Made by a program: the position numbers and the translations under genes
Origin: Escherichia coli
Lineage (GTDB): Bacteria > Pseudomonadota > Gammaproteobacteria > Enterobacterales > Enterobacteriaceae
Reading direction: 5' to 3' (one strand)
Assembly: GCF_013122565.1 (NCBI RefSeq)
Contig: NZ_CP053258.1
DNA length: 64,000 nucleotides
Notes under the pieces: model-generated
Told to the model about the DNA's origin: nothing
The model's input: only the letters and a program-made list of their open reading frames with translations
Database searches by the model: none
Shown: piece by piece, positions 1 to 51,784 of the stretch
Numbering within the stretch: the stretch's first letter is position 1
Layout of the letters: the number at the start of each line of letters is the position of its first letter

Positions 1-521
1 ATTTCGCTGTCGCCGACAAACAGGCCGACGGTCACCTTGCCATGCAGTTGTGGATCGCTGGCGATGGTTTTGGCGAAACGGCTGGCCTGATCGGTTGCCA
101 GGGCGTTCATCGGGTAGATGATAATCGCTTTAACCCCGGCTTGTGACGCGCCCGCGCAGTGGTTGAGCAGCGGGAACATAAAGCATTCTGTTTTACCGGA
201 GCCGGTACCGGTAGCGACCAGCGTCGGCTGTGGCGCGTCGCTTCCCAGACGCTGAAATGCCCGGGCCTGATGCGCGTGCGGCGGGAACGGCAGCGTCAGA
301 TTAGGGAAGAAATTCAGCGGTAAGTCACTTTTACGAAACGGCAACTGGGCGGAAAGGTATGGTCCTTTCAGCAGCGTTTCGGGCTGGGCCAGAAATTGCT
401 CCAGCATTGAGACATTATCGTTATTCTCACCGTTAAACAGCGGGCTGTTTAGCGGGAACGCCGCCCGTAAAAAGGCGGCAACGCTGTCGGCGACCTGCCG
501 ACTGACAACGGACGGCAACAT
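1..521 (-). CDS. DEAD/DEAH-box SF2 helicase, 5' portion only (gene continues beyond window start); DISARM DrmA-like
   Basis: Manual translation of minus strand from ATG at 521-519 gives MLPSVVSRQVADS...PTLVATGTGSGKTECF (Walker A) with no stops to position 1; start overlaps upstream stop (ATGA); RBS-like GGAGAG upstream. Confidence 0.6.
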   Translation of the reverse strand, partial: MLPSVVSRQVADSVAAFLRAAFPLNSPLFNGENNDNVSMLEQFLAQPETLLKGPYLSAQLPFRKSDLPLNFFPNLTLPFPPHAHQARAFQRLGSDAPQPTLVATGTGSGKTECFMFPLLNHCAGASQAGVKAIIIYPMNALATDQASRFAKTIASDPQLHGKVTVGLFVGDSE

Positions 522-18195: not shown

Positions 18196-18403
18196 CCTGC
18201 CTTCCTTTGATACAATTCGTAACAGGTTACTATCATCATAAAAAAGCTCAACCCGATGAACTCGCTAAAAATGAGACAAATCATTTATATCTCGAAAAAA
18301 CTTGTTACAATCATGAGCGCTACACCGAACTTAACCATATAAATTATGTGTGTTTTGTTTATTTTTTAAACGATTACAACTATCCATTATTTACACAGGT
18401 ATC

Positions 18404-20059
18404 AAAATGTTAGCGCAGCTTTTTGAGCAGTTGTTTCAATCGATAGACTCTACACTGATCACCAATATTTTCATCTGGGCTGTTATATTCGTATTTTTAT
18501 CAGCGTGGTGGTGTGACAAAAAAAATATACATAGTAAGTTTAGAGAATATGCTCCAACCTTAATGGGGGCATTAGGTATTCTGGGTACTTTCATTGGTAT
18601 TATTATTGGTTTACTCAATTTTAATACCGAAAGTATTGATACCAGCATCCCCGTATTATTAGGTGGCCTAAAAACAGCATTCATTACAAGCATTGTAGGT
18701 ATGTTTTTTGCCATTTTATTTAATGGAATGGATGCTTTCTTTTTTGCCAATAAACGAAGTGCGTTAGCAGAAAATAACCCTGAATCTGTTACACCTGAAC
18801 ATATCTATCATGAATTAAAAGAGCAGAACCAGACTCTGACTAAATTAGTCTCGGGTGTTAACGGTGATAGTGAAGGTTCTCTTATTGCTCAAATAAAATT
18901 ACTACGTACTGAGATTAGCGATTCTTCGCAGGCACAATTAGCTAATCACACTCATTTCAGTAATAAGCTTTGGGAACAACTTGAACAATTTGCAGATCTA
19001 ATGGCAAAAGGTGCTACAGAACAAATTATTGATGCTTTGCGACAAGTTATTATTGATTTTAATGAAAATTTAACTGAACAGTTTGGTGAAAACTTTAAAG
19101 CACTTGATGCCTCTGTAAAAAAACTTGTTGAGTGGCAGGGAAATTATAAAACGCAAGTTGAGCAGATGTCAGAACAGTATCAACAAAGTGTCGAGTCCCT
19201 GGTTGAAACAAAAACTGCGGTTGCAGGGATTTGGGAAGAATGTAAAGAAATTCCTCTGGCTATGTCTGAACTGCGTGAAGTGCTTCAGGTGAACCAACAT
19301 CAAATCAGCGAACTCTCCCGCCATTTAGAAACCTTTGTCGCCATCCGCGATAAAGCAACAACCGTATTACCTGAAATACAGAACAAAATGGCTGAAGTGG
19401 GTGAACTGCTGAAATCCGGAGCTGCAAATGTTAGTGCATCTCTTGAGCAAACCAGCCAGCAAATACTTCTTAATGCAGATTCAATGCGCGTGGCCCTGGA
19501 TGAAGGTACCGAAGGATTCAGACAATCGGTTACCCAAACACAACAAGCATTTGCCTCGATGGCACATGATGTCAGCAATTCCTCCGAAACCCTAACCAGC
19601 ACGTTAGGTGAAACAATTACTGAAATGAAACAAAGTGGTGAAGAATTCCTGAAATCACTAGAGTCGCACTCGAAAGAATTGCATAGAAATATGGAACAAA
19701 ATACTACGAATGTGATTGATATGTTCAGTAAGACTGGTGAAAAGATTAACCATCAACTATCCAGTAATGCCGATAATATGTTTGATTCAATCCAGACATC
19801 ATTTGATAAGGCAAGTGCAGGGTTGACTTCTCAAGTCAGAGAATCAATTGAAAAATTTGCTCTATCCATCAACGAGCAGTTACATGCTTTTGAGCAAGCA
19901 ACTGAACGTGAAATGAACCGTGAAATGCAATCATTAGGTAATGCTCTGCTTTCAATCAGCAAAGGTTTTGTCGGTAACTATGAAAAACTTATTAAAGATT
20001 ACCAAATAGTTATGGGGCAGTTACAAGCATTAATTTCTGCTAATAAACATCGCGGGTAA
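18404..20059 (+). CDS. MotA/ExbB-like membrane protein with long coiled-coil tail; Zorya ZorA-like
   Basis: N-terminal hydrophobic helices followed by long helical Q/E/L-rich tail; ORF track starts at GTG 18350, first ATG at 18404. Confidence 0.65.
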   Translation, partial: KMLAQLFEQLFQSIDSTLITNIFIWAVIFVFLSAWWCDKKNIHSKFREYAPTLMGALGILGTFIGIIIGLLNFNTESIDTSIPVLLGGLKTAFITSIVGMFFAILFNGMDAFFFANKRSALAENNPESVTPEHIYHELKEQNQTLTKLVSGVNGDSEGSLIAQIKLLRTEISDSSQAQLANHTHFSNKLWEQLEQFADLMAKGATEQIIDALRQVIIDFNENLTEQFGENFKALDASVKKLVEWQGNYKTQVEQMSEQYQQSVESLVETKTAVAGIWEECKEIPLAMSELREVLQVNQHQISELSRHLETFVAIRDKATTVLPEIQNKMAEVGELLKSGAANVSASLEQTSQQILLNADSMRVALDEGTEGFRQSVTQTQQAFASMAHDVSNSSETLTSTLGETITEMKQSGEEFLKSLESHSKELHRNMEQNTTNVIDMFSKTGEKINHQLSSNADNMFDSIQTSFDKASAGLTSQVRESIEKFALSINEQLHAFEQATEREMNREMQSLGNALLSISKGFVGNYEKLIKDYQIVMGQLQALISANKHRG

Positions 20060-20065
20060 TCGATC

Positions 20066-20773
20066 ATGGATAAGATTATAGGGAAACAATTACCTAAAAA
20101 AGATCAAGATAATGAACATTGGGTATCCATGTCAGACCTAATGGCAGGGCTGATGATGGTTTTTATGTTCATATCTATTGCTTATATGCACTACGTACGT
20201 ATTGAAAAAGAAAAAATTAAAGAAGTTGCCGTAGCCTACGAGAATGCTCAGTTACAGCTTTATAATGCTCTGGATATTGAGTTTGCAAAGGATTTACAAG
20301 ACTGGGATGCAGAGATCGATAAACAGACTCTGGAGGTTCGATTTAAATCACCGGATGTTTTATTTGGCTTAGGAAGCACAGAGCTAAAACCAAAGTTTAA
20401 ACTCATTCTTGACGACTTTTTTCCTCGCTACCTAAAAGTTCTAGATAATTATCAGGAACATATTACTGAAGTCCGCATTGAAGGTCACACAAGTACTGAC
20501 TGGACAGGAACAACGAATCCTGATATTGCTTATTTTAATAATATGGCACTATCACAAGGTCGTACACGTGCAGTATTACAATACGTTTATGACATAAAAA
20601 ATATCGCGACACACCAACAATGGGTTAAAAGTAAATTTGCCGCAGTAGGTTATTCATCTGCACATCCCATTCTTGATAAAACCGGCAAGGAGGATCCTAA
20701 TCGCTCTCGTCGTGTCACCTTCAAAGTTGTAACAAATGCCGAGTTGCAGATTAGAAAGATTATTCAGGAGTAA
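20066..20773 (+). CDS. MotB/OmpA-like protein with peptidoglycan-binding domain; Zorya ZorB-like
   Basis: N-terminal TM helix; OmpA-like C-terminus (NxxLSQGRTRAV...NRSRRVTF); 6 nt after zorA-like stop. Confidence 0.65.
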   Translation: MDKIIGKQLPKKDQDNEHWVSMSDLMAGLMMVFMFISIAYMHYVRIEKEKIKEVAVAYENAQLQLYNALDIEFAKDLQDWDAEIDKQTLEVRFKSPDVLFGLGSTELKPKFKLILDDFFPRYLKVLDNYQEHITEVRIEGHTSTDWTGTTNPDIAYFNNMALSQGRTRAVLQYVYDIKNIATHQQWVKSKFAAVGYSSAHPILDKTGKEDPNRSRRVTFKVVTNAELQIRKIIQE

Positions 20774-20776
20774 GAG

Positions 20777-21880
20777 ATGAAATTATCTATCGACATTTCA
20801 GAACTTATTCAATTAGGGAAGAAAATGTTACCAGAAGGAGTCGATTTTTTTCTGGATGAATCCCCTATTGACTTTGATCCTATAGATATTGAGTTATCAA
20901 CGGGTAAAGAAGTTAGTATCGAAGATCTTGACCCTGGTAGCGGGCTTATCTCTTATCATGGCCGCCAGGTTCTTTTATATATTCGGGACCATTCAGGGCG
21001 TTATGATGCGGCTATCGTAGATGGCGAAAAAGGAAAACGTTTTCATATTGCCTGGTGCAGAACTCTTGATGAAATGCGCCATAAAAATCGATTTGAAAGG
21101 TATCATGCAACTAACCGCATAGATGGTTTATTCGAAATTGATGATGGTTCAGGTCGGAGCCAGGATGTTGATTTACGGGTATGTATGAATTGCCTCGAAC
21201 GGCTTAATTATAAAGGAAGTATTGATAAACAAAGAAAAAGAGAGATTTTTAAATCATTCTCATTAAATGAGTTTTTTTCAGATTATAGTACCTGTTTTCG
21301 TCATATGCCTAAGGGTATCTATGACAAAACAAATAGTGGGTATGTCGAAAACTGGAAGGAAATATCTAAAGAAATACGAGAAAAGGCAAATTATGTTTGT
21401 AATGATTGTGGCGTGAATTTATCAACCGCCAAAAACTTGTGCCATGTCCATCATAAAAATGGCATCAAATATGATAATCACCATGAAAACCTTCTTGTTC
21501 TGTGCAAGGATTGCCATCGAAAACAGCCCCTCCACGAAGGTATATTCGTTACCCAAGCAGAGATGGCTATCATTCAACGTTTACGTTCCCAACAAGGGTT
21601 ATTAAAAGCAGAATCCTGGAATGAAATATATGACCTGACTGATCCATCAGTGCATGGTGATATTAATATGATGCAACATAAAGGCTTTCAACCTCCTGTT
21701 CCTGGGTTAGATCTTCAAAACTCAGAACATGAAATTATTGCAACCGTAGAAGCTGCATGGCCAGGCCTTAAAATTGCAGTTAACCTTACTCCCGCCGAAG
21801 TCGAAGGATGGAGAATATATACCGTGGGTGAGCTGGTTAAAGAAATACAAACCGGAGCCTTTACGCCAGCAAAATTGTAA
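20777..21880 (+). CDS. HNH endonuclease-domain protein; Zorya type II ZorE-like
   Basis: HNH motif CNDCG...CHVHHKNG...NLLVLCKDCH; third gene of MotA-like/MotB-like cassette. Confidence 0.6.
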   Translation: MKLSIDISELIQLGKKMLPEGVDFFLDESPIDFDPIDIELSTGKEVSIEDLDPGSGLISYHGRQVLLYIRDHSGRYDAAIVDGEKGKRFHIAWCRTLDEMRHKNRFERYHATNRIDGLFEIDDGSGRSQDVDLRVCMNCLERLNYKGSIDKQRKREIFKSFSLNEFFSDYSTCFRHMPKGIYDKTNSGYVENWKEISKEIREKANYVCNDCGVNLSTAKNLCHVHHKNGIKYDNHHENLLVLCKDCHRKQPLHEGIFVTQAEMAIIQRLRSQQGLLKAESWNEIYDLTDPSVHGDINMMQHKGFQPPVPGLDLQNSEHEIIATVEAAWPGLKIAVNLTPAEVEGWRIYTVGELVKEIQTGAFTPAKL

Positions 21881-35339: not shown

Positions 35340-35706
35340 GTGTTAGCCGGGAAAGGATATCTGTTACTTACTAAAATGATTTAGTGCTGAAAATATTTAT
35401 AAGCTAATAAATAGACAGGTATTACGGAGTAACGCCCAGGCTATGTTAACGAGCCCGCTGTTTTATTGGCTCAAAAAACATATCCCATAGATGTTCAGCC
35501 ATACCCTCGTTAGTGAGCAAGGTATCCCTTGAGTAGCCAGGGCTGAAGACGCCCATTGATGGGCGAAAACCAAGGATCTGGCCGTTAGAACAGTTATGTC
35601 GTTAAACACATCACCACCATATGCCATCCGGCTCACTTCGTCGGCCAAATTAGTGTGATATTCTTTCCAGAAATGCTGTTGTATCCACGACATAAGGCGA
35701 TGATTG

Positions 35707-38700
35707 ATGGAGCAGTCTCTCAATTTTGAAATGTTGCGCAGCCAGTGGCCGGAACTGGCTGAACTCGCGTGCATGGCGGAACACTATGTTCACTCCGATC
35801 CGGAAAGCTGTCTGGTCAAGCTGCGCAACTACACCGAATTGATGGTGCGCTGGTTGTATCGTCAGGAGCGGTTGCCGGAAGGTATTAAGGCTAATCTTTA
35901 CGATTTAATGAATGCTGATGTCTTTACCAGCATGATGCCGGAAGCCATCATCATGAAAATGGATGCGCTGCGTATCCATGGCAACCGTGCCGCGCACGGC
36001 GGACGTATCAAAGCTAAAGATACTTACTGGCTGCTCAAAGAAGCGTATTTGTTGGGAATTTGGCTGTATGTTCGCTACGCCCACGGTAATGTTGATGACT
36101 GCCCCAAATTTACACTCCCTCCATTAACACCATCTTCAGGTCGTGCAGATGAAAAACGTCTGGAAGATGCAATCAAGGCTCAGGATGAAAGCCGTGAGCG
36201 CGAACTGGCGCTACAACGCGCACTACAGCAAGAACAGGAAAAGGCCGAACACCTCACTCAACGCCTGAATGAAGCCAGAGCGCGTAACCAGCATGTTGCC
36301 GATATTCTCTCTATTGATGAAGCGGAAACCCGCCGTCGCCTGATTGACTCTCGCCTGCTTGCTGCTGACTGGAATGTAGGCGAAGAACTTAATAATACCG
36401 ATCAGGTCACGCAGGAACACCCCGTTAAAGAACAACCTACTGCAACCGGTGACGGTTATGCAGACTATGTCTTGTGGGATGAGGCACACAAACCGCTGGC
36501 GGTGGTGGAAGCCAAAAAAACTAGTGTCAATGCCGAGCAAGGACGAATTCAGGCCCGGCTGTATGCAGACTGGCTGGAAAAAGAATACGGTCAGCGTCCG
36601 GTCATCTTCTACACCAACGGCTATGATATCTGGCTGTGGGATGACCATAAAACTCATGGTTATCCCCCGCGTCGGGTGTTTGGCTTCTACAGCAAGGAAA
36701 GCCTGCAATATCTTATTCAGCAGCGTGAAACCCGTCTGCCGCTGAACAGAGTGCCACACGTAAAAGATAACGAAGGTAAGGCCGTTGCCGGACGTTTGTA
36801 CCAGCTCGAAACCATTGCCCGCGTCAGTGAACGGTTTACCAACAAGTACCGACAATCGTTAATTGTTCAGGCTACGGGTACAGGCAAAACCCGCGTGGCA
36901 ATTGCACTAAGCAAACTGATGATTGATGCCCGCTGGGTAAAACGCGTCCTGTTTCTTTGCGACCGTAAAGAGCTGCGTAAACAGGCGGCAAATGCCTTTA
37001 ATCAATTCACCAATGAGCCGCTGTATGTGGTCGGGAAATCGAAGAAAGCAGACAGGCAGAACGCCAGGATCTACATCGCTACCTATCCCGGTATGATGAA
37101 AATCATGGACCATTTCGATGTCGGATATTTCGATCTGATTATCGCCGATGAATCCCATCGCTCTATCTACAACGTTTACGGCGATCTGTTTAAGTATTTT
37201 GATGCCCTCCAGATTGGCCTGACGGCCACGCCGATCGACATGGTGAGTAAAACGACTTTCGGCCTGTTTGGTTGTGAAGGACGTATCCCTACCGCCAACT
37301 ACAGTCTGGAAGATGCCATCGCCGATAACAATCTGGTTCCCTATGAGGTTGTCACGCACACCACAGAATTCCTGCGCGAAGGCATCAAACGGGAGAAATT
37401 AAGCGACACACAAATCCGCGAGCTGGAAGAACAAGGCATAGATCCCAATACGCTGGAGTTTGATGGCAAGGCGCTGGATGAGGCGATCTACAACAAAGAC
37501 ACCAACCGCTATATCCTGCGTAACCTGATGGAAAATGGCCTGAAAGATCGGGACGGCCAGTTGCCAGGTAAAACCATCATTTTCGCCCGTAACCACAAAC
37601 ACGCGCTGCTGTTGAATGAATTGTTCGACGATATGTACCCGCAGTTTGCCGGGCGCTTCTGCCAGGTCATCGACAATTACGATCCCCGCGCCGAGCAACT
37701 GATTGATGATTTTAAAGGGCTGGATGAAAGCACTAACAAAGAGCTAACCATCGCTATCTCCGTTGACATGCTCGATACCGGTATTGATGTCCCGGAGATT
37801 GTGAATCTGGTCTTTGCCAAACCGGTCAAATCAAAAGTGAAATTCTGGCAGATGATTGGCCGTGGTACGCGCCTCTGTCCGGGGTTGTACGGTTACGACG
37901 ATAACGGCAAACCTCTGGATAAACAGAAATTCCGCATTTTCGATCACTGGGGCAATTTTGAGTATCACGAACTGCATACCGAAGAGGCCGAAGTCACAGC
38001 GACAAAATCGCTTGCACAAAAACGCTTCGAAGCGTGGGTTATGCTGGGGGCCGCTGCGCAACGTAAATTCGACAAACAGGCGGTGGATTTAGTTGCTCAC
38101 CAGCTTCGCGAGCAAATCAACGCACTGGATGAAAAGTCGATTGCCGTACAGGAAAAGTGGCAGCAAAAAGCGCAGTACAGTGATGAAAAGGTGCTGCGCC
38201 AGCTTTCTCCGAAAACACAGCAGGATCTGCTATCTGTTCTGGCCCCGCTGATGCAGTGGCTGGACGTGCGCGGGCAAAGCGATGCCATACGCTTTGATAT
38301 GGATATTCTGGCGGCGCAAACTGCCCGTTATACCAACCCGGAAGAGCTGGATGTGCTCTGGCCGGCCATCGTCGAAAAAGTGGAGCGCCTGCCGCCGCAT
38401 TTGGCGCAGGTGCAGCAACAGGGACAGCGGATCAATCAGCTTCGTGATTTAAGCTGGTGGAAGCAGGCCAGCCTGGAAGAGCTGGAGGATATTCGCATTC
38501 ATTTGCGCGGTATCATGCACCTGATGGAAAAAGACGCGACGCCTAAATTTGGTTCGATACAGGTGGATATTACCGAAGATGCGAACCTGATCCAGACGGA
38601 GACCCGCAAAACTAATATCCGCTCGATTGATTTCAAACTCTATCGCCAGCAGGTTCAGGGGGCGCTGGAGCCGCTGTTCCAGCAAAACCCGGTTCTGAAG

Positions 38701-39120
38701 AAAATCCGCAACGGCGAGCCAGTCACGCAAAACGAGCTTGATGAACTGGCGAAGCTGGTGCTGATCCAGAACCCCAACGTTGATATCCGGGCACTGAAAG
38801 AGTTCTATCCGCAGGCAACCGCCAGCCTGGATAAACTTTTGCGTACCATCATCGGGATGGACAGCGACGCGGTGGAAGTGCGCTTTGCTCAGTTCGCCGC
38901 TGATAACAGTCTAACCAGCCAACAACTGCGCTTCCTGTCATTGCTGAAAAACCACATTCGCGATTACGGCACCATTGAAATGCGGCAGCTCTTTGAACAG
39001 CCTTTTACGCATATCCACAACGAAGGCGTTACCGGTGTGTTCCCTGATATAGAGCAGATCGCCCGCCTGCAAAAGATAGTCGAAGAGCTGGGTGTTGTGA
39101 CCGACGCAGCGACGGTATAA
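35707..39120 (+). CDS. hsdR: Type I restriction enzyme R subunit
   Basis: DEAD-like helicase motifs (GTGKT, DESHR), size about 1137 aa; immediately upstream of hsdM/hsdS; ATG 35707 preceded by AAGG. Confidence 0.85.
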   Translation: MEQSLNFEMLRSQWPELAELACMAEHYVHSDPESCLVKLRNYTELMVRWLYRQERLPEGIKANLYDLMNADVFTSMMPEAIIMKMDALRIHGNRAAHGGRIKAKDTYWLLKEAYLLGIWLYVRYAHGNVDDCPKFTLPPLTPSSGRADEKRLEDAIKAQDESRERELALQRALQQEQEKAEHLTQRLNEARARNQHVADILSIDEAETRRRLIDSRLLAADWNVGEELNNTDQVTQEHPVKEQPTATGDGYADYVLWDEAHKPLAVVEAKKTSVNAEQGRIQARLYADWLEKEYGQRPVIFYTNGYDIWLWDDHKTHGYPPRRVFGFYSKESLQYLIQQRETRLPLNRVPHVKDNEGKAVAGRLYQLETIARVSERFTNKYRQSLIVQATGTGKTRVAIALSKLMIDARWVKRVLFLCDRKELRKQAANAFNQFTNEPLYVVGKSKKADRQNARIYIATYPGMMKIMDHFDVGYFDLIIADESHRSIYNVYGDLFKYFDALQIGLTATPIDMVSKTTFGLFGCEGRIPTANYSLEDAIADNNLVPYEVVTHTTEFLREGIKREKLSDTQIRELEEQGIDPNTLEFDGKALDEAIYNKDTNRYILRNLMENGLKDRDGQLPGKTIIFARNHKHALLLNELFDDMYPQFAGRFCQVIDNYDPRAEQLIDDFKGLDESTNKELTIAISVDMLDTGIDVPEIVNLVFAKPVKSKVKFWQMIGRGTRLCPGLYGYDDNGKPLDKQKFRIFDHWGNFEYHELHTEEAEVTATKSLAQKRFEAWVMLGAAAQRKFDKQAVDLVAHQLREQINALDEKSIAVQEKWQQKAQYSDEKVLRQLSPKTQQDLLSVLAPLMQWLDVRGQSDAIRFDMDILAAQTARYTNPEELDVLWPAIVEKVERLPPHLAQVQQQGQRINQLRDLSWWKQASLEELEDIRIHLRGIMHLMEKDATPKFGSIQVDITEDANLIQTETRKTNIRSIDFKLYRQQVQGALEPLFQQNPVLKKIRNGEPVTQNELDELAKLVLIQNPNVDIRALKEFYPQATASLDKLLRTIIGMDSDAVEVRFAQFAADNSLTSQQLRFLSLLKNHIRDYGTIEMRQLFEQPFTHIHNEGVTGVFPDIEQIARLQKIVEELGVVTDAATV

Positions 39121-39183
39121 TACACGCATGACAAGCCCCGGCAGCGGGGCTTTTGTATTTAAAACAGGATATAAACGCTAACA

Positions 39184-40818
39184 ATGATCACTGGTGACTT
39201 AAAAAGTAAAATCGACGGACTATGGGAAGATTTCTGGGTGGGTGGTATCACCAACCCGCTGACTGTAATCGAACAGATCACCTATCTAATGTATTCCCGG
39301 ATGCTGGATACCCAGGAACAACGTGACGAGAAGCGTAAACAAATCGCGGGTATTGATTTTAAACCGCGTTTTACGCCAGAACAGCAGGAGTTCCGTTTCA
39401 GTCACTATAGCAATCTTGGCTCGGATGAGATGATGGAAGTGGTGCGCGATGGCGTATTCCAGCATTTTCGTCAGCTCGGCCTGGCTGATGCATCAAAGGT
39501 GACACTGCTGGGCAACTTTATGAAAGATGCTCGTCTAGAGATTGTTAAGCCGTCATTGCTGACCAAAGCGGTTGAGGTGATCAAAAACCTGCCGCTCGAT
39601 CGCGGCGATACCAAAGGCGATCTCTACGAGTACCTGTTGAGCAAGCTAACTACCGCCGGGATCAACGGTCAGTTCCGCACGCCACGCCACATTATCCGCA
39701 CGATGGTTGAAATGATGGAGCCGAATCCCGCCCGCGGCGAGACGATTTGCGATCCAGCCTGTGGCACCGGTGGTTTTCTGGCAACCAGCTATGAATATCT
39801 GCTGGAGAAGTACAGCTCGCTGGAATCCATCCATACTGAGATTGGCACCAACGAACGTGGCGAGCTGGAAGAGCAAAAAATCTTTACCGGCGATCTGCTG
39901 ACGCCATGGCGTAACCATGTGGATAACAATATGTTCCACGGTTACGACTTTGATACCACCATGCTGCGTATCGCCGCCATGAACCTGATTATGCACGGCG
40001 TGGAAGCGCCTGATATCCACTATCAGGACACCATGAGCCAGAGCTTCAGCACAAACTTCCCGCAGGCCAGTAAAAACGCTTTCAACCTGATTCTGGCAAA
40101 CCCGCCGTTTACCGGTTCACTGGACGAGGAAGATATCGACTCCACGCTGTCGGCAATGGTGAAAACAAAAAAAACCGAACTGCTGTTCCTGGCGCGAATT
40201 CTGCAAATGCTGAAAGTGGGCGGGCGAAGTGCCACTATCGTGCCGCAGGGCGTGCTGTTTGGCTCCAGTAAGGCGCACCAGTCACTTCGCAAAACGTTGG
40301 TGGAAGATAACCAATTGGAAGCGGTGATCAACCTGCCTTCCGGCGTATTTAAACCTTACGCTGGCGTGGCGACGGCGATCCTGATCTTTACCAAAGGCGG
40401 TCAAACGGATGAGGTCTGGTTCTACGATCTACAAAATGACGGCTACAGCCTGGATGATAAGCGCAACCCGATAAAAGACAACGATCTGCCGCATCTGCTG
40501 GCAAGCTGGAAGCATTACCGTACTTTACGCGGGCTACCGGTTGATAACTTTATGGGTGAGAAGTTAGCCTCATTGCTGAAACAGCAGTACCCGGAAGGGA
40601 TTGATGCTGGCGTTGATTTTAAAGATCGCACGCAGGCGGCATTTGTGGTGCCGAAAGAAGATATTGCTGCGCAGAAATACGATCTCTCTATCAATCGTTA
40701 TAAAGAGGTGGTGTATCAGGCGGAGGAATATGAAGATCCGAAGGTGATACTGAAACGATTAAAAGATCTGGAAAAAGAGATTCTGGCGGATCTGGATGAG
40801 CTGGAGGGGATGCTGTGA
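39184..40818 (+). CDS. hsdM: Type I R-M N6-adenine DNA methyltransferase M subunit
   Basis: N-terminal HsdM-like region, AdoMet motif ([10 protein letters not shown]) and NPPF catalytic motif. Confidence 0.9.
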
Positions 40819-41990
40819 GCAGGAAAGAATATTCCTTTATTGAAGTATGTGATATCCAAGGAGGAACTCAGCCTCCAAAGGACGAGTTTGTTTATGAAAA
40901 AAAAGATGGATATATAAGGCTTTTACAAATCCAAGATTTTAAAAGAGAGGATAAAACTGTTTATATTAAGGATAGGCATACTCTGAAAAAATGTAATGAC
41001 GATGATATTCTAATAGGTAGATATGGAGCATCTATTGGAAAAATTCTCTCTGGGTTATCAGGAGCATATAACGTTGCTTTGGTTAAAGCCATCCCTGATT
41101 TAAAAAAAATAAACAAGAGATTTTTATGGCATTTTTTAAACAGTGTAGTATTTCAAGAATTTATAAAAAATGTTTCTACTCGAGCCGCTCAAGCTGGGTT
41201 TAATAAGGATGACTTAGCAAAGCTAAAAATATATTTACCATCTTTAAATGAGCAAGTGAAAATTGCTTCTGTTCTTGATTTATCTGATGCCATACGCAAA
41301 AAACGAGAACAAACTATCAAACTGGCTGATGATTTTTTGCGTGCTACGTTTTTGGAGATGTTTGGTGATCCTGTTGAAAACCCTAAAGGATGGAAAAAGG
41401 ATAAAATAAAAAAAGGTGTGTTAGGCATTGCTTCAGGATGGAGTGCCACTGGAGAAAATATACCCTGTAAATCTGATGAATTTGGCGTGTTGAAAATCAG
41501 CTCGGTGACTTCTGGAGTATTCAAACCAGAAGAAAATAAAGTGGTAGCCTGTGAATCCATTCCCGCTTCAAAAAAACTTATTCACCCTAAAAAGGGAGAT
41601 TTGCTATTTAGTCGCGCAAATACCAGAGAGTTAGTTGCTGCGATATGCATGGTTCATCAGGATTATGACAACCTTTTCCTTCCTGATAAACTATGGTCTA
41701 TTAAGTTAAATCATAAGCTATTGCTACCAGAGTTCTTTCTCATCTTAATACAAAATGAAAAAGTCCGTGAGTTACTAACAAAACAAGCGACCGGAACAAG
41801 TGGGTCGATGCTAAATATATCTAAAAATAAATTTGAAGAAACTGAAATTATCTTCCCAGAGATCAATGTTCAAAAAGATTTTTGCAATACTTTCAGAAAA
41901 ACAATAAATTTGAAAACAAAGTTAATAAAAAGTAATGAATTAGCTAATGAGTCATTTAATTCATTATCTCAAAAGGTATTTCAGCAATGA
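40815..41990 (+). CDS. hsdS: Type I R-M specificity subunit
   Basis: 391 aa with two target-recognition-domain halves; GTG start overlapping hsdM stop (GTGA) with GGAGGGGA RBS; AT-rich. Confidence 0.8.
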   Translation: MSRKEYSFIEVCDIQGGTQPPKDEFVYEKKDGYIRLLQIQDFKREDKTVYIKDRHTLKKCNDDDILIGRYGASIGKILSGLSGAYNVALVKAIPDLKKINKRFLWHFLNSVVFQEFIKNVSTRAAQAGFNKDDLAKLKIYLPSLNEQVKIASVLDLSDAIRKKREQTIKLADDFLRATFLEMFGDPVENPKGWKKDKIKKGVLGIASGWSATGENIPCKSDEFGVLKISSVTSGVFKPEENKVVACESIPASKKLIHPKKGDLLFSRANTRELVAAICMVHQDYDNLFLPDKLWSIKLNHKLLLPEFFLILIQNEKVRELLTKQATGTSGSMLNISKNKFEETEIIFPEINVQKDFCNTFRKTINLKTKLIKSNELANESFNSLSQKVFQQ

Positions 41991-43678
41991 AAATTGTTTA
42001 TACACCTGATCGATCCTGGAGAGAAATCCCACCAGCAAAACCAGAACTTGGTGATGTTTTATCTCTGAGCAGTAATAATTGGGATGACTATGGATATAAA
42101 ACTACTCTAAACGCAAAAATATACATTAAGAATCAATCTATTTCATTTGATTTTTCAATTAAATTATTAATTGAAAATATCGATAACACGGCAATAAAGC
42201 TAGATGAATTATGTAAAGATGGATGGGATGGAATATTCCCCATCCCTAATACTAACTATATAGCTCTTCCATCTGATATTGATTTTTATCAAATACTCAT
42301 ATCTAAAATAGGTGAGGAATCAACAGTCAATCTTCTGAATGATCTGAACGATGCAGGTTTCAATAAAAATGTTTACCATAATGAAATATCTAACAGACTC
42401 ATAGAACAAGATGCCTTTAAAACGTCATTACTCCGAGAAAGTGGAGCAAATAAAGCCTATCTAGACGGTTATCTGATATTCCAAAATATTCACGCAGAAA
42501 TAAGAAACTTTCAGTTAAATATTTTAACGAAAAAAGGAGGTGTAAATAAGATACCATTTAAATTTGAATCTAATTTATTGCCTTATGATATTAATGTTAT
42601 TATTGGCCCGAATGGGATTGGTAAATCTCATTGCCTGAAATCACTTGTTGAATATTGGTTGCAAATAGGAATGGGGGAACAACGATTACTTGAAAAGAAT
42701 AAGCATACTCCATTTGATGAACGACCTAACATAAGTAAGCTTGTTCTTGTTTCTTATAGCCCTTTTGAAGAGTTCAGCCTAGATCTAGAAAAAGACAATT
42801 TACAAGATAAAAAGGCATATCAATATTTTGGTTTCAGGCAAATGAGAGATAATGGGACAATTGGTATCAGTCGAAACTTACCAGCTTTAAATTCAAGTGA
42901 GTCATTACTTGAAATGATATCTGATGATAAGAAATACCAATTCATTGAAAATCGAATAAATAAGCTCAACTCTGTCGATTCTGCACTCAAATCTGCTATT
43001 AGCTATGATTATTGTGTTCTAAGATTATCTCCAGAAGATAACTCATCTTATCTCGGGAAAGATATTGTCATAATTGATGGCGAAAAATATCTCCCTGCAG
43101 TAAATATTGTAAAATGGGCTGATCATTTAGATTTAATAAGGGATTCTATACTACTCAATGATGGTGTAATCTTTGTTAAAGATGGGGAAATTGTAAATCT
43201 TAGTTCTGGCCAACGATTATTTGTATATATAGCTATTAATGTTGTCGGTGCAATGAAAGAAAATAGCTTAATTGTGATTGATGAACCTGAATTATTTTTA
43301 CATCCTAACCTTGAAATAGAATTCATTGGGCTACTAAAAAAATTACTTAAATCATTTCGCTCTAAAGCTATTCTAGCTACTCATTCCCTATCTATCACAC
43401 GTGAAGTACCGTCAAAATGTGTACATATATTCCGCTACAAGGATGACGAATTTGAAATAGTCCCCCCGCCATTTGAAACATTTGGCGGTAATGTTCAGAG
43501 AATTTCTTCTTATGTTTTCGGCGATAAATCGATCTCTAAGCCTTTTGATGAATGGCTTGAGATGCAGCTTCAAGCTATTAAAGATCCTGAAAAATTAATT
43601 GAAATGCTAAATGAAGAAATTAATGAAGAAATAATCATGAAAATCATGAGTTTAGGGAAAAAGTATCATGGTCACTAA
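41987..43678 (+). CDS. ABC/AAA-type ATPase (563 aa) with an about 200 aa N-terminal domain of unknown function; Septu PtuA-like
   Basis: Walker A GPNGIGKSH near residue 208; Walker B-like VIDEPELFLHP; ATGA overlap with hsdS stop. Confidence 0.55.
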   Translation: MKIVYTPDRSWREIPPAKPELGDVLSLSSNNWDDYGYKTTLNAKIYIKNQSISFDFSIKLLIENIDNTAIKLDELCKDGWDGIFPIPNTNYIALPSDIDFYQILISKIGEESTVNLLNDLNDAGFNKNVYHNEISNRLIEQDAFKTSLLRESGANKAYLDGYLIFQNIHAEIRNFQLNILTKKGGVNKIPFKFESNLLPYDINVIIGPNGIGKSHCLKSLVEYWLQIGMGEQRLLEKNKHTPFDERPNISKLVLVSYSPFEEFSLDLEKDNLQDKKAYQYFGFRQMRDNGTIGISRNLPALNSSESLLEMISDDKKYQFIENRINKLNSVDSALKSAISYDYCVLRLSPEDNSSYLGKDIVIIDGEKYLPAVNIVKWADHLDLIRDSILLNDGVIFVKDGEIVNLSSGQRLFVYIAINVVGAMKENSLIVIDEPELFLHPNLEIEFIGLLKKLLKSFRSKAILATHSLSITREVPSKCVHIFRYKDDEFEIVPPPFETFGGNVQRISSYVFGDKSISKPFDEWLEMQLQAIKDPEKLIEMLNEEINEEIIMKIMSLGKKYHGH

Positions 43679-44594
43679 GTTACAACTTCCCGAATATGAC
43701 TCTATTAAGGTACTCCGAACCATCATTTCAGAAAGAGAGAGATATAAAGATTTCTATGATAGCTTATCGAATGATTGGATAGCACATGTAGAAAGCTATT
43801 TGGAACATCATGGTGATCCACGCTTTATTACACCTCTCGACCTCTCTCTGTATATTTCAGAAGAATTAGTACAAAATGAAGAAGAGAAAACAACTGATGC
43901 CAATAGGCATATATCGGCGCAAGAAAGACTGACGCAAAAAAGGAAACAAACTCTAATTAATTTATACTCTCCTGCTGAGGGGAAAACTCCCTACGATATT
44001 CTTGATACTTTAAGACGAGGACATGGCCTGTTATTTTGCCCATGTTGTGGGGAACCAGGAAAGCCGACAACGTTAGACCATTATTTGCCTAAAACTATCT
44101 ATCCTGAATTAGCTATAATTATTGCTAACTTAACGCCGATGTGTAATGAATGTCAGCAGAATAAAAGTTCTGATTATTTTGATGAGGATGGTAACAAAAT
44201 TTACATACATCCTTATTTTGATCCTATTGAACAAGTTAATTTAATCATTGATATAGAAGAACCCTATGCTACTCCAACATTCAGGCTAAACATTACTGAG
44301 GATGGTGATGATAATGAGATTTATGAATTGCTAAGGCGACATATAAATGGTGTTAAATTTTTAGAGCGATTCGATGAGTTTTGTCGAAATGAATATATGG
44401 CATTATTGCGCACAATGTCATTAGAACGTCAAGATGCTCAACCGGATAGAGCGTCAAGAATAATTTGTCGATTCAAACGCCAATATGAGGGTCAGTCTCC
44501 AAATAGATGGGAGGCTATTTTCTATAGAGGGATATTGAATAATGCCGACCTACTTAATTATCTAGATCATGGAAACTTGCCTGATTTTACATAA
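43668..44594 (+). CDS. HNH nuclease-domain protein (308 aa); Septu PtuB-like
   Basis: HNH motif CPCCG...LDHYLPK...NLTPMCNECQQNK; start overlaps ATPase gene by 11 nt with AGGGAAAAAG RBS. Confidence 0.55.
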   Translation: MVTKLQLPEYDSIKVLRTIISERERYKDFYDSLSNDWIAHVESYLEHHGDPRFITPLDLSLYISEELVQNEEEKTTDANRHISAQERLTQKRKQTLINLYSPAEGKTPYDILDTLRRGHGLLFCPCCGEPGKPTTLDHYLPKTIYPELAIIIANLTPMCNECQQNKSSDYFDEDGNKIYIHPYFDPIEQVNLIIDIEEPYATPTFRLNITEDGDDNEIYELLRRHINGVKFLERFDEFCRNEYMALLRTMSLERQDAQPDRASRIICRFKRQYEGQSPNRWEAIFYRGILNNADLLNYLDHGNLPDFT

Positions 44595-44842: not shown

Positions 44843-45847
44843 TTAATAATAATTATAGTATAACCGTTTAATTGCCTTGTTTAATATAGTTTCATACTCA
44901 TTTTCTGACATATTCAACCAAGCAGTTATACTTTTTAATCCACTAGACTGATAATCTATAAACTCGCGCATTTTATTATAATCAATACTTACCTGCGTGT
45001 TTGTATCAGCTATAACTTTAGGTTCCCCATTACACCACCCTAAAATAAGAAAACTACTCATTGTGCTTGACATGTCACAAAAGAAAAAAAGATCGGGTAT
45101 TATTTTACCTAATTGCTTTGCATAACTGACTACCTCAGGTATTTCAAGCAACTCTCTGGGGTCATCATCATACCCCCCAAATAATATTTCAACCTTACCC
45201 TGTTGACTATAAGCAAATTCCTTTGTCACTTTTAGTCTTTTAAAAATGCTAATGACAAAACCAAAATCAAATCTTAAAACATCTTCTTTAGGAATAATTA
45301 GGCGAGTGATATCTATATTCTCATTAAATATTTTGTTTACACACCAAAACATTTCAAACTCAGAGTAATAATCAACTTCTTCAGGAAGAAGTGCCAATAT
45401 CTCATCTCTACTATCAATCAATTGACGTTTTGGAATATTAATCTTCCATGATTTTTTTGTTCTTTCAATTTTGATAGGATCAAAATATTCCCAAAACACT
45501 TCTTTTTTTTCAGGATTGCAAAGCAAAATCAAAACAGGTATTGGGCAGTTGGATAAATAATTAAAGTGCTTATTTTCACCTCTGTAAACATATCCCCACC
45601 GATTTTCTTCCGAAAAAAATGAAGCTCCACATTTGATTTGTACAGCAAGCATTTTCCCCGTTACGGCTCCATCTTCTCGTACTATTTCGATATAACCATC
45701 GATACCGAAATCCATTTCTTGATGGTTTATCTTAAAAATCCATCCAAGATTTTCATTAATTACTGATTTTACTATATTTACTCCAAGCTCACCTAATTGA
45801 GCTTCTTTTTGGTATTTTGGGAATTTATCTATCATAAAAAACCTCAA
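44843..45847 (-). CDS. Uncharacterised protein (334 aa) with possible restriction-endonuclease-like (PD-(D/E)xK, DUF4365-like) N-terminal domain
   Basis: Putative D...E.K-like motif (DFGIDGYIEIV...AVQIKCG); AT-rich gene flanked by AT-rich spacers next to integrase. Confidence 0.4.
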   Translation of the reverse strand: MRFFMIDKFPKYQKEAQLGELGVNIVKSVINENLGWIFKINHQEMDFGIDGYIEIVREDGAVTGKMLAVQIKCGASFFSEENRWGYVYRGENKHFNYLSNCPIPVLILLCNPEKKEVFWEYFDPIKIERTKKSWKINIPKRQLIDSRDEILALLPEEVDYYSEFEMFWCVNKIFNENIDITRLIIPKEDVLRFDFGFVISIFKRLKVTKEFAYSQQGKVEILFGGYDDDPRELLEIPEVVSYAKQLGKIIPDLFFFCDMSSTMSSFLILGWCNGEPKVIADTNTQVSIDYNKMREFIDYQSSGLKSITAWLNMSENEYETILNKAIKRLYYNYY

Positions 45848-46150: not shown

Positions 46151-47419
46151 TCACTCGCCATTACCCCGATTGATCTTCGCATAGTCAAACGGCGTAATCG
46201 CTCTCTCCCGATTGGCATCCAGAAAATCAGCCCACCACTGCAACATCAGCTTGCGTTCATCCAGGTGTTCCGCTTTATGGATATACGCCGCCCTCACTGA
46301 ATTGCGTTCCATATGGCTCATCTGCCTTTCCACCGCATCCTTCGACCATAGTCCTGACTCAATTAGCGAACTACAGGCCATTGTGCGGAAACCGTGACCA
46401 CAAACTTCAACCTTAGTGTCATAGCCCATCACCCGTAGCGCACTGTTTACGGTGTTCTCGCTCATGGGCTTACGCGGATCGTGATCGCCAATAAAAATCA
46501 GCTCATGCTCACCACAGAACTGCTTTATCTGCTTCAGGATCGCCAACGCCTGCTTTGAAAGTGGCACCAGATGCGGTGTACGCATCTTTGATCCTCGCTG
46601 AGAATGTTTAACATCAGGAATGGGTTCACGTTCCGGTGGAATCGTCCACATCGACGTGTCGAAATCTATCTCCGACCAGCGGGCAAAACGTAGCTCGCTG
46701 GATCGAATAAAGATAAGCAGGGTAAGTTCGGTTGCCCAACGGGTTAATCGCCTTCCAGTATAGCTGTCTATTTTCTGAAGCAGTTCTGGAATACGCTTTA
46801 ACTCCAGAGCCGGGCGATGCTGTCGCTTGCCAGAAGCAACGGCTCCCGCCATCTCTTGAGCCGGGTTATAATCAATCAGTCCACTTTGCACAGCATAACG
46901 CATGATAGCCGTGGTACGTTGTTGGAGACGGGAAGCCACCTCAAGACGTCCAGATATCTCTACGGCTTTAATGGGAAGTAACAAATCACGGGTACTCAAT
47001 TCAGCAATATTACGTGTCCCAATCGCCGGAAAGACATTATCCTCCAGACTCTTTTTTACACGATTAGCATGATCTTCCGACCATTTTTGGTTGGTCACGA
47101 GCCACTCTCTGGCAACCTTCTCGAAAGTAATAATCTCTTTCGCCTGCTCTTCTTTCACAACACGCTTATGTTCGCGTGGATCGATACCAGCAGCTACCAG
47201 CTTTCTGGCCTCCTCCCTTTTCTTCCTGGCATCTGCCAGTGAAATTTCGGGGTAAACACCAAACGCCATCACATGCTGCTTGCCACCAAAACGAAAACGA
47301 AATCGCCAATATTTGGAGCCATTAGCATGTACCAGTAAAAACAGGCCATCACCATCAGATAGCGGGTTTGCATTATCTTCAGATTTTGCCGAACGGACTT
47401 TAGTATCAGTCAGAGCCAT
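46151..47419 (-). CDS. intB: P4-type tyrosine integrase
   Basis: 422 aa; typical P4 integrase N-terminus (MALTDTKVRSAK) and C-terminal catalytic region (HGFRT, Y); directly downstream of leuX 3' end. Confidence 0.9.
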   Translation of the reverse strand: MALTDTKVRSAKSEDNANPLSDGDGLFLLVHANGSKYWRFRFRFGGKQHVMAFGVYPEISLADARKKREEARKLVAAGIDPREHKRVVKEEQAKEIITFEKVAREWLVTNQKWSEDHANRVKKSLEDNVFPAIGTRNIAELSTRDLLLPIKAVEISGRLEVASRLQQRTTAIMRYAVQSGLIDYNPAQEMAGAVASGKRQHRPALELKRIPELLQKIDSYTGRRLTRWATELTLLIFIRSSELRFARWSEIDFDTSMWTIPPEREPIPDVKHSQRGSKMRTPHLVPLSKQALAILKQIKQFCGEHELIFIGDHDPRKPMSENTVNSALRVMGYDTKVEVCGHGFRTMACSSLIESGLWSKDAVERQMSHMERNSVRAAYIHKAEHLDERKLMLQWWADFLDANRERAITPFDYAKINRGNGE

Positions 47420-47582
47420 GATACTTCTCCTTCCATGTACCGCCGTGAGTATACAAACATTATCGAATCAGCATATATACTCAGTTATATACTCACAAGC
47501 GACTTGATGTGGGTTGACCCAGGTTGACTTCAGTTGAGGGGAAAATCGAGGAAAGCCTTGTGTAGCGCGGGTTTCAGGCATA

Positions 47583-47608
47583 AAAAAAGACCTCAGTTGA
47601 GGTCTATT
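47583..47608 (-). terminator. Rho-independent terminator of leuX
   Basis: Hairpin GACCTCA-ACT-GAGGTC followed by T-run on minus strand. Confidence 0.6.
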
Positions 47609-47618
47609 TACATACTTT

Positions 47619-47703
47619 TGGTGCCGAAGGCCGGACTCGAACCGGCACGTATTTCTACGGTTGATTTTGAATCAACTGCGTCTACCGATTTCGCCACTTC
47701 GGC
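47619..47703 (-). tRNA. leuX: tRNA-Leu (CAA)
   Basis: Reverse complement reads GCCGAAGTGGCGAAATCGGTAGACGCAGTTGATTCAAAATCAACCGTAGAAATACGTGCCGGTTCGAGTCCGGCCTTCGGCACCA (85 nt, CAA anticodon, CCA end). Confidence 0.95.
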
Positions 47704-47898
47704 ACTGAAGAGGTATGCGGAAAACGTTGTGGATTATACCTGTCGCACGCCACCATGCAAGCGCCAGCTTGCTCGCACCTCGCTAAGTGCTGAAATTTTC
47801 AGCATTGCATACAGCGATGTGTAACCTTTGTCACACTCCAGGCACCCCGCCCTGCCATGCTCTACACTTCCCAGACAACACCAGAGAAGGACCAAAAA

Positions 47899-48918
47899 AT
47901 GTCGATGATAAAAAGCTATGCCGCAAAAGAAGCGGGCGGCGAACTGGAAGTTTATGAGTACGATCCCGGTGAACTGAAGCCACAAGATGTTGAAGTGCAG
48001 GTGGATTACTGCGGGATCTGCCATTCCGATCTGTCGATGATCGATAACGAATGGGGATTGTCACAATATCCGCTGGTTGCCGGGCATGAGGTGATTGGGC
48101 GCGTGGTGGCACTCGGGAGCGCCGCGCAGGATAAAGGTTTGCAGGTCGGTCAGCGTGTCGGGATTGGCTGGACGGCACGCAGCTGCGGGCATTGCGATGC
48201 CTGTATTAGCGGTAATCAGATCAACTGCGAGCAAGGTTCGGTGCCAACAATTATGAATCGCGGCGGTTTTGCCGAGAAGTTGCGTGCGGACTGGCAATGG
48301 GTGATTCCACTGCCAGAAAATATCGACATTGAATCTGCTGGGCCGCTGTTGTGCGGCGGTATCACGGTCTTTAAACCACTGTTGATGCACCATATCACTG
48401 CCACCAGCCGCGTTGGGGTAATTGGTATTGGCGGGCTGGGGCATATTGCCATAAAGCTTCTGCACGCGATGGGATGCGAGGTGACAGCCTTTAGTTCTAA
48501 TCCAGCGAAAGAGCAGGAAGTGCTGGCGATGGGTGCCGATAAAGTGGTGAATAGCCGCGATCCGCAGGCACTGAAAGCTCTGGCGGGCCAGTTTGATCTC
48601 ATTATCAACACCGTCAACGTCAGCCTCGACTGGCAGCCTTATTTTGAAGCGCTGACCTATGGCGGTAATTTCCATACGGTCGGAGCGGTTCTCACGCCGC
48701 TGTCTGTTCCGGCCTTTACGTTAATTGCGGGCGACCGCAGCGTCTCTGGTTCTGCTACCGGCACGCCTTATGAGCTGCGTAAGCTGATGCGTTTTGCCGC
48801 CCGCAGCAAGGTTGCGCCGACCACCGAACTGTTCCCGATGTCGAAAATAAACGACGCCATCCAGCATGTGCGCAACGGTAAGGCGCGTTACCGCGTGGTT
48901 CTGAAAGCCGACTTCTGA
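47899..48918 (+). CDS. ahr: NADPH-dependent aldehyde reductase (zinc-type alcohol dehydrogenase)
   Basis: Matches remembered Ahr/YjgB starting [14 protein letters not shown]; Zn-ADH motifs CGICHSD, GHEVIG. Confidence 0.9.
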
Positions 48919-49047
48919 TCCCTTTGCCGGGTGCCTGTCGCCCGGCACTTAAATCTCTTTGGAAGGCGTCTCGCAATCTGCTGAATTTAGCGGTGAAGAG
49001 TGCGCAGCCGTTGCCTATACTCCAGGCAGGAAACTGGAGGAAATCTC

Positions 49048-50550
49048 ATGAGCGAACCCCTGTTAATTGCCCGCACGCCGGACACAGAACTGCTTTTATT
49101 GCCGGGAATGGCGAATCGTCACGGGCTGATTACTGGCGCAACGGGTACGGGTAAAACCGTTACGCTGCAAAAACTGGCGGAGTCTCTATCGGAAATCGGT
49201 GTTCCGGTGTTTATGGCCGATGTGAAAGGCGATCTGACCGGCGTCGCGCAGGCAGGAACGGCGTCGGAAAAACTGCTCGCAAGGCTTAAAAATATCGGTG
49301 TCAACGACTGGCAACCGCATGCCAATCCGGTGGTGGTGTGGGATATCTTTGGCGAGAAAGGCCATCCGGTGCGGGCGACGGTTTCAGACCTGGGGCCGCT
49401 GTTGCTGGCGCGGCTGTTGAATCTCAACGATGTGCAGTCTGGCGTGCTAAATATCATCTTCCGTATTGCTGACGATCAGGGGCTGTTACTGCTCGACTTT
49501 AAAGATCTGCGGGCGATTACCCAGTACATCGGCGATAACGCCAAATCCTTCCAGAATCAGTACGGAAATATCAGTAGCGCATCGGTTGGTGCCATCCAGC
49601 GCGGATTACTGTCGCTGGAGCAACAAGGTGCGGCGCATTTCTTTGGCGAGCCGATGCTGGATATCAAAGACTGGATGCGCACCGATGCTAACGGTAAAGG
49701 CGTTATCAATATCCTCAGCGCCGAAAAGCTTTATCAGATGCCTAAACTGTACGCCGCCAGCCTGCTGTGGATGCTCTCGGAGTTGTATGAACAATTGCCG
49801 GAAGCGGGCGATCTGGAGAAACCAAAACTGGTGTTTTTCTTCGACGAGGCACATCTGCTGTTTAACGATACCCCGCAGGTACTGCTGGATAAGATTGAGC
49901 AGGTGATAAGGCTTATCCGCTCAAAAGGCGTGGGCGTCTGGTTCGTTTCGCAAAACCCGTCTGATATTCCGGATAACGTGCTCGGGCAGCTCGGTAATCG
50001 CGTTCAACACGCTTTGCGTGCTTTTACGCCTAAAGATCAGAAAGCAGTGAAGGCAGCAGCGCAAACCATGCGGGCCAATCCGGCGTTTGATACCGAAAAG
50101 GCGATTCAGGAACTGGGCACCGGCGAGGCGTTAATCTCGTTTCTTGATGTGAAAGGAAGTCCTTCAGTGGTGGAGCGGGCGATGGTGATTGCGCCTTGTT
50201 CGCGAATGGGGCCGGTGAAGGAAGATGAGCGCAATGGCTTGATTAATCACTCTCCGGTGTATGGCAAGTACGAGGATGAGGTGGACCGGGAATCCGCCTA
50301 TGAGATGTTGCAAAAAGGCTTTCAGGCCAGTACCGAGCAGCAAAATAATCCCCCCGCGAAAGGGAAAGAGGTGGCGGTGGATGACGGTATTCTTGGTGGA
50401 TTGAAGGATATTTTGTTTGGCACTATCGGACCACGCGGCGGGAAGAAAGATGGTGTGGTGCAAACAATGGCGAAAAGCGCCGCCCGCCAGGTGACGAATC
50501 AGATTGTGCGTGGAATGTTGGGGAGTTTGCTGGGGGGGAGAAAAAGGTAA
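49048..50550 (+). CDS. yjgR: P-loop NTPase of DUF853 family
   Basis: Matches remembered YjgR starting [12 protein letters not shown]; Walker A GATGTGKT. Confidence 0.8.
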
Positions 50551-50568
50551 GCCAGGTGCGATTTGTCT

Positions 50569-50606
50569 TTGCCTGATGCGACGCTGGCGCGTCTTATCAT
50601 GCCTAC
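50569..50606. repeat. REP (repetitive extragenic palindrome) element
   Basis: GCCTGATGCGACGCTGGCGCGTCTTATCATGCCTAC consensus-like sequence. Confidence 0.5.
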
Positions 50607-50701
50607 ACCACTGCAATATATTGGATTTTCATGATTTTTCAGGCATGAACGAAGCACACTTTGCTAATAATAATAAAGGGAGCTTTCGCTCCCTTGCTTG
50701 G

Positions 50702-51784
50702 TTACGATTTTCTCATTAACAGCCACAGGCTGATTAAGAAGAAGCTGGCGCTTGGCAACAGTGCGCCAATGATCGGCGGGATGCCATAAACCAACGTCAG
50801 CGGGCCGAAGATCTGGTCCAGTACATAGAAGACAAAACCGAAGCTGATACCGGTGACCACACGCACGCCCATCGGTACGCTACGCAGTGGGCCAAAGATG
50901 AACGACAGCGCCATCAGCATCATCACCGCCACGGATAGCGGCTGGAAGATTTTGCTCCACATGTTGAGCTGATAACGTCCGGCATCCTGACCGCTCGACT
51001 TCAGATACTTCACATAGTTGTGCAAACCACTGATGGAGAGTGCATCCGGGTCCAGCGCCACCACGCCCAGTTTGTCCGGCGTGAGGTTGGTTTTCCAGGT
51101 GCCGCTCACCGTCTGCGAACCGGTAATCTGTTTCGGATTGGTCAGATCAGATTCATCAACCTGCGACAGACGCCAGACTTTATGTTCCGGGTCAAACTTC
51201 GCAGTAGCAGCATAGCGTACGGATTGCAGACGACGATTCTCGTTAAAGGCATAAATGCTGATGCCACCTAACTCTTCGTCTCCTTTAACCCGCTCAATGT
51301 AGACGAAGTTGTTGCCATCTTTCGCCCATAAGCCTTGCTGGGTAGAGAGCAACGAGCCGCCGTACATCGCCTGCGCACGGTAGTTACGCGCCATCTGCTC
51401 GCCCTGCGGCGCGACCCATTCGCCAATCGCCATCGTCAGTAAGACCAGCGGAATGGCGGTTTTCATCACCGACAGCGCAACCTGCATACGGGTGAAACCA
51501 GAAGCCTGCATCACCACCAGTTCGCTGCGCTGCGCCAGCATCCCAAGACCAAGCAACGCCCCAAGCAGAGCCGCCATCGGGAAGAATATTTGCACATCTT
51601 TCGGCACGCTCAGCAAGGTATACATTCCTGCGCCTAACGCGTCGTAACTCCCCTGCCCGGCTTTTTTCAGCTGATCGACAAACTTGATAATGCCCGACAG
51701 CGACACCAGCATGAACAGCGTCATCATGATGGTGGTGAAAATAGTTTTACCGATATAGCGGTCAAGTACGCCAAAAGGTTGCAT
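50702..51784 (-). CDS. lptG: LPS export ABC transporter permease LptG
   Basis: Matches remembered LptG (MQPFGVLDRYIGKTIF...); polytopic membrane protein. Confidence 0.9.
   Translation of the reverse strand: MQPFGVLDRYIGKTIFTTIMMTLFMLVSLSGIIKFVDQLKKAGQGSYDALGAGMYTLLSVPKDVQIFFPMAALLGALLGLGMLAQRSELVVMQASGFTRMQVALSVMKTAIPLVLLTMAIGEWVAPQGEQMARNYRAQAMYGGSLLSTQQGLWAKDGNNFVYIERVKGDEELGGISIYAFNENRRLQSVRYAATAKFDPEHKVWRLSQVDESDLTNPKQITGSQTVSGTWKTNLTPDKLGVVALDPDALSISGLHNYVKYLKSSGQDAGRYQLNMWSKIFQPLSVAVMMLMALSFIFGPLRSVPMGVRVVTGISFGFVFYVLDQIFGPLTLVYGIPPIIGALLPSASFFLISLWLLMRKS

Follow-up and report, generated by a model that had tools for sequence, protein, structure and literature searches.

The analysed stretch of Escherichia coli DNA (64,000 nucleotides of the contig NZ_CP053258.1 in the RefSeq assembly GCF_013122565.1, referred to below as the window) carries the tRNA gene leuX followed by the genes ahr (yjgB) and yjgR, which are separated by a gap of only 129 bp (48919-49047), and by the lptG-lptF-pepA backbone (Table 1). 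The leuX gene, detected by ARAGORN and as an Rfam tRNA of 59.4 bits, occupies a K-12-like position relative to ahr; the island on its left is integrated at this gene, and the conserved backbone starts here. The product of ahr, an NADPH-dependent aldehyde reductase with the Pfam domains ADH_N and ADH_zinc_N, is intact (339 aa) and has 98.8% amino acid identity to the Ahr of K-12 over 339/339 residues, and the product of yjgR, a HerA-like C-terminal (DUF853) P-loop protein (Pfam HerA_C, E = 1.8e-252), is intact as well (500 aa, with the ATG at 49048 and the stop codon ending at 50550) and shows the same 98.8% identity to its K-12 counterpart, both values being from tblastn. By the same method, LptG, LptF and PepA were found to be full length and each 100% identical to the K-12 proteins. 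The window is collinear with the strain JML285 across 47569-54668, including the lptG-lptF-pepA backbone. An identical YjgR and the same integrase-ahr-yjgR arrangement are present in the independent Logan assembly SRR11451224, and the arrangement without idn genes in the window is therefore not an assembly artefact.

Table 1. Coordinates of the features at the ahr-yjgR locus, in the neighbouring island and at the corresponding Enterobacter loci (positions are those of the window unless a locus is given)
Feature	Positions	Strand	Remark
Type IIG RM / DrmMI-like enzyme	521-5437	-	1638 aa
DrmD-like SNF2 helicase	5440-8298	-	
Druantia type III, druH/druE	8522-18195	-	
Zorya type II, zorA/B/E	18350-21880	+	
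Type I R-M, hsdR/M/S	35704-41990	+	
PDC-M01A/B	41987-44594	+	
DUF4365 protein	44843-45847	-	
P4-type integrase	46151-47419	-	
leuX, tRNA-Leu(CAA)	47619-47703	-	
ahr (yjgB)	47899-48918	+	
90-bp spacer	48919-49008	+	private to the idn-less allele
Hairpin, 9 bp, G+C-rich	48925-48947	+	directly 3' of the ahr stop codon
39-bp yjgR leader	49009-49047	+	common to both alleles
yjgR	49048-50550	+	
yjgR-lptG spacer	50551-50701		between convergent genes
REP	50571-50606	+	1 mismatch to the REP consensus
pepA-holC spacer	54665-54887		
REPs of the pepA-holC spacer	54734-54769, 54830-54865	-	in a ~96-bp tandem unit
Slot gene, E. cloacae DSM 26481	L006 8217-9863		
Slot gene, Enterobacter sp. Ag1	L007 8224-9930		

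In K-12, the slot between ahr and yjgR, which lies beside leuX and is shared with the window, contains the GntII (subsidiary gluconate / L-idonate) system idnK-idnDOTR. In contrast to K-12, the window lacks all five of these genes and has a 90-bp spacer with a hairpin instead. The initial annotation had claimed that, unlike in K-12, no idn genes are found between the end of ahr (48918) and the start of yjgR (49048), and all its coordinates hold; the K-12 order that it gave agrees with that of NC_000913.3, which reads lptG-yjgR-idnR-idnT-idnO-idnD-idnK-ahr-leuX. In the blastn comparison of the K-12 idn segment with the whole 64-kb window the sole match was the shared 39-bp yjgR leader, and no match of IdnK, IdnD, IdnO, IdnT or IdnR to the 64-kb window was obtained by tblastn. 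Thus, the five idn genes between ahr and yjgR by which the GntII / L-idonate cluster is recognised are missing from the window. The alignment with K-12 MG1655 and other E. coli references, which had been proposed as the check, confirmed that the absence of idn is real, but showed it to be common.

The homology with K-12, as established by the alignment, stops at the ahr stop codon and restarts 39 bp ahead of the start codon of yjgR, at 49009. The 90-bp spacer between these two points sits where K-12 has the 5,087 bp of idnK-idnDOTR, with idnK converging on ahr at a spacing of 3 bp and idnDOTR following. The comparison of the spacer with the K-12 idn cluster and with the rest of the window gave only chance matches of 9-15 nt and no source for it. 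Because the spacer has no detectable similarity to the idn DNA, the idn-bearing and the empty states are replacement alleles, and neither can be derived from the other by a clean deletion or insertion. Both breakpoints are fixed: one immediately follows the stop codon of ahr, and the other precedes the ATG of yjgR by 39 bp.

The first part of the spacer is occupied by the hairpin, which folds with -17.3 kcal/mol (z = -3.87; as stable a fold in 0 of 200 shuffles) and was also reported by the terminator consensus scan, with a weak T-tract (AAATCTCTTT). The stem is kept in E. albertii, with the loop altered, and a hairpin of different sequence is found at the equivalent place in Citrobacter werkmanii (-17.4 kcal/mol). 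This hairpin is a putative, and likely, transcription terminator of ahr. Within the 39-bp leader of yjgR lie a TATACT hexamer and the ribosome-binding site GGAGG, and the leader is identical or nearly so in the window, JML285, K-12, E. albertii, C. werkmanii and Citrobacter sp. FP75. The promoter scan of the spacer for the sigma-70 consensus gave none, the TATACT hexamer of the leader having been spotted by eye only, and the Rfam search of 47400-50800 at a permissive threshold returned only leuX and weak matches to REP-derived sRNA, none of them in the ahr-yjgR spacer.

The distribution of both alleles was assessed in 5426 complete E. coli genomes. The empty junction, counted as a 211-bp query covered by at least 80% in one piece, is contiguous in 3217 of them (59%), and the 3.1-kb ahr-yjgR stretch of the window is contiguous in 3212; the junction is 95-100% identical across E. 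coli, with 100% identity in the strain CFSAN061771, and it is borne out by alignments with JML285 and E. albertii. The idn cluster was found in 2055 of the same genomes (38%), nearly full length in 2038 of them, at a median of one place per genome and always on the chromosome. The two counts are nearly complementary, other states making up about 154 genomes (~3%) by subtraction. The absence of idn in the window is, accordingly, ordinary, representing the majority allele of an already known presence/absence polymorphism of accessory genes.

The empty state was checked singly in O157:H7 86-24, ATCC 8739, Nissle 1917, JML285, CFSAN061771 and GPEC1035, and the idn-bearing state in K-12, HS, ABU 83972, ST95-32, STEC307 and SCU-306. 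Both states therefore occur in K-12 (idn-bearing) and ATCC 8739 (empty), both of phylogroup A, and likewise in Nissle 1917 (empty) and ABU 83972 (idn-bearing), which are close ST73 relatives. The proteins of the leuX integrase, Ahr and YjgR also differ between Nissle 1917 and ABU 83972. The gene order and the 129-bp gap of the window match those of the empty-site allele of O157:H7, Nissle 1917, ATCC 8739 and the E. albertii type strain. The window has both the shared contiguous junction and the intact, collinear flanks that characterise the common empty-site allele, and very probably represents this allele in a two-allele ahr-yjgR polymorphism for the accessory GntII / L-idonate cluster.

Several genomes with an unusual interval between ahr and yjgR were considered separately. 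Two of them, 673 and MLI104K2, belong to the ~3% with other states. The strain 673, taken as a candidate for a third cassette, was rejected as a separate case of ahr truncation, and in the idn-bearing strain 1532MA the gene of an IS1 transposase lies inside the span of the idn match. In the strain MLI104K2 (NZ_CP116925.1; locus L084, 8959-9886), ~930 bp annotated as a LacI-family pseudogene and a hypothetical protein are an apparent assembly artefact. A remnant of idnR at this place, which would argue for decay of idn in situ, was rejected: the 928-bp interval is composed mostly of long C/G/T homopolymer runs and contains chimeric bits of both alleles, as is typical of a poor long-read consensus.

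The REP element that had been noted near the locus (at 50569-50606) is real, with its boundaries at 50571-50606, and is unrelated to the idn state. It resembles the REP / BIME extragenic palindromes of E. coli in its match to the consensus and in its site between convergent genes, and its similarity to naRNA4, an Rfam family derived from REPs, is weak. The scan with a REP consensus revealed three copies within 3 mismatches in the window (starting at 50571, 54734 and 54830), all intergenic, with 0 expected by chance. The copy at 50571 is collinear with K-12 and lies 1.5 kb from the idn junction. The yjgR-lptG spacer that contains it is 160 bp long in the idn-bearing strains K-12 and ABU 83972 and in the empty O157:H7 86-24, as well as in JML285, ST95-32 and SCU-306, and it is 118 bp long in Nissle 1917 (empty) and 127 bp in HS (idn-bearing), with lengths of 118-127 bp also in ATCC 8739, CFSAN061771 and STEC307. 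The REP itself is variable in its presence or absence, all four combinations with the idn state occur, and the element has no evident part in the idn polymorphism. In the pepA-holC spacer of the window, where the other two REPs are located, the copy number of the tandem unit is strain-dependent, the segment being missing in JML285 and partial in K-12, E. albertii and MLI104K2.

A recent deletion of idn in this strain or in a close lineage, possibly by way of the nearby REP or of the activity of the leuX island, might be suspected at a locus that adjoins an integration site with its island, has a REP 1.5 kb away and is locally damaged in some genomes, as by the ahr truncation in 673 and the IS1 transposase in the idn span of 1532MA. 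Against such an event, one and the same junction is shared by the 3217 genomes, with the full match in CFSAN061771, and has orthologues in E. albertii and C. werkmanii; the spacer does not stem from idn DNA; neither ahr nor yjgR is damaged; and the REP, which is collinear with that of K-12, shows variation that is independent of the idn state. Signs of a deletion scar, sought in the 64-kb window as remnants of idn, were not found there, the flanks being intact and the junction not unique to the strain. Since the junction of the window is the common shared one, the explanation by a recent deletion is effectively refuted, and we regard it as extremely improbable.

The genes on both sides of the slot are unusually diverse, as was seen in a comparison of 13 E. 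coli with E. albertii. Pairwise differences among the 13 E. coli reach 6-7% in ahr and yjgR, compared with 1-2.6% in lptG, 1.5 kb further on, and the variable sites number 127 of 1020 nt in ahr and 204 of 1503 nt in yjgR. The haplotypes of ahr and yjgR in the 13 E. coli are not grouped by the idn state, with the exception of a few fixed sites, namely four substitutions within the 3'-terminal ~19 nt of ahr and a single yjgR site that are fixed between the empty and idn-bearing alleles. This pattern fits an old polymorphism with flanks that have been recombined many times. Unlike those of other empty-site E. coli, the ahr and yjgR coding sequences of the window are more diverged, the best match of the 3.1-kb stretch among the 5426 complete genomes being only 96.5% identical, a value that would be explained by old and often-recombined flanks without a foreign origin. 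An import of the flanks of the window from E. albertii was considered and rejected, the identity being ~90% and the divergence mosaic and within the high diversity of ahr and yjgR in E. coli.

The outgroups were drawn from a scan of species-representative genomes with YjgR, in which the matches listed were mostly from Betaproteobacteria, with at least seven usable enterobacterial loci. Among the matches listed, the outgroups are mixed for the allele state, the empty and the idn-bearing forms both being found, so that both alleles, with the same breakpoints, occur outside E. coli too. The E. albertii type strain NBRC 107761 and C. werkmanii are empty, with 129-bp gaps that are 94.6% and 73.7% identical, respectively, to that of the window. 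Citrobacter sp. FP75 carries idnK-idnD-idnO-idnT-idnR in the ahr-yjgR slot. As in K-12, its idnK lies against the stop codon of ahr, and the two loci align collinearly along 9.4 kb with 78% nucleotide identity; the Idn proteins of the two are 80-96% identical, and Ahr, YjgR and LptG 91-94%. In Enterobacter cloacae DSM 26481 and Enterobacter sp. Ag1 the slot is filled by one related gene on the opposite strand, coding for 548-568 aa, and the protein of E. cloacae matches Pfam Dak1 and Dak2 as a fused dihydroxyacetone kinase. What the slot carries thus differs from genus to genus, and the same breakpoints of both alleles in two genera indicate that both alleles are old.

Which of the two states came first may be viewed in two ways. 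In one, the empty site would be ancestral, and the idn cluster, a paralogue of the gnt genes, would have been inserted once in place of the 90 bp and then spread by recombination, including between genera. The empty spacer does look like an intergenic region that is functionally complete, ahr being followed by a conserved hairpin, and it occurs in E. albertii as well as in Citrobacter; GntR, GntK and GntU have been described as having recent paralogues in IdnR, IdnK and IdnT (PMC4052901), and the Enterobacter slot holds a different gene, the Dak1/Dak2 kinase. Such an insertion alone, however, would not remove 90 bp, and the divergence of the Idn proteins between K-12 and FP75 is about that of the flanking core genes at a collinear locus, so the idn allele must also be old. 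We consider this order of events a serious candidate, its chances falling just short of even.

In the other, the idn state would be ancestral for the Escherichia/Citrobacter/Salmonella group, and a single deletion or replacement would have produced the empty allele, which would have spread afterwards. The identical slot and the identical junction at the ahr stop codon for idn in two genera are in agreement with it, as is the mere presence of idnD in S. Typhimurium (PMC11836396). A deletion cannot create a 90-bp spacer that is unlike idn, however, and the empty spacer, too, shows conservation between genera. We consider an idn-bearing ancestor a real possibility, somewhat less probable than an empty one.

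Under the replacement-allele polymorphism preferred here, the empty allele would have had a single, long-ago origin and would not be a deletion in this strain, and both alleles have probably moved between lineages since then, with homologous recombination acting through the conserved flanks, which adjoin the leuX integration site. It may further be supposed that the slot is a very old polymorphism kept by selection, with the diversity of the flanks as the footprint of balancing selection or of repeated imports across lineages; the same breakpoints in Escherichia and Citrobacter and the third occupant in Enterobacter, the Dak1/Dak2 kinase, speak for this, and we nevertheless hold it to be unlikely. 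Alternatively, the flank diversity may be a mere by-product of the adjoining leuX integration site.

The accessory character of the cluster is in line with the literature. Thus, among E. coli genomes, idnODRKT was reported in 83% of those that are pks-positive and in ~31% of the pks-negative ones, with the suggestion that it may confer a metabolic advantage in colonisation (PMC8545132); idnK is present in SE15 and absent from ST131 H30 and H22 (PMC5369007); and idn is among the variable operons of a meat-plant collection (PMC10269509). The idnD mutant of S. Typhimurium had no competitive or colonisation defect in any mouse model tested (PMC11836396). On the basis of the gene content of the 64-kb window, the strain is predicted not to use L-idonate or 5-ketogluconate via GntII; the main gluconate system, GntI, sits outside the window. 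For annotators, the missing idn genes are to be read as the majority allele and as neither an assembly gap nor a notable deletion. The locus may serve as a textbook example of an old indel of the replacement type, probably reshuffled through homologous recombination, and has little wider import; mild interest attaches only to the fixed breakpoints that different genera share and to the high diversity of the genes on either side.

The part of the window to the left of leuX (521-47419) is a low-GC island (31-50%) that is full of anti-phage systems.
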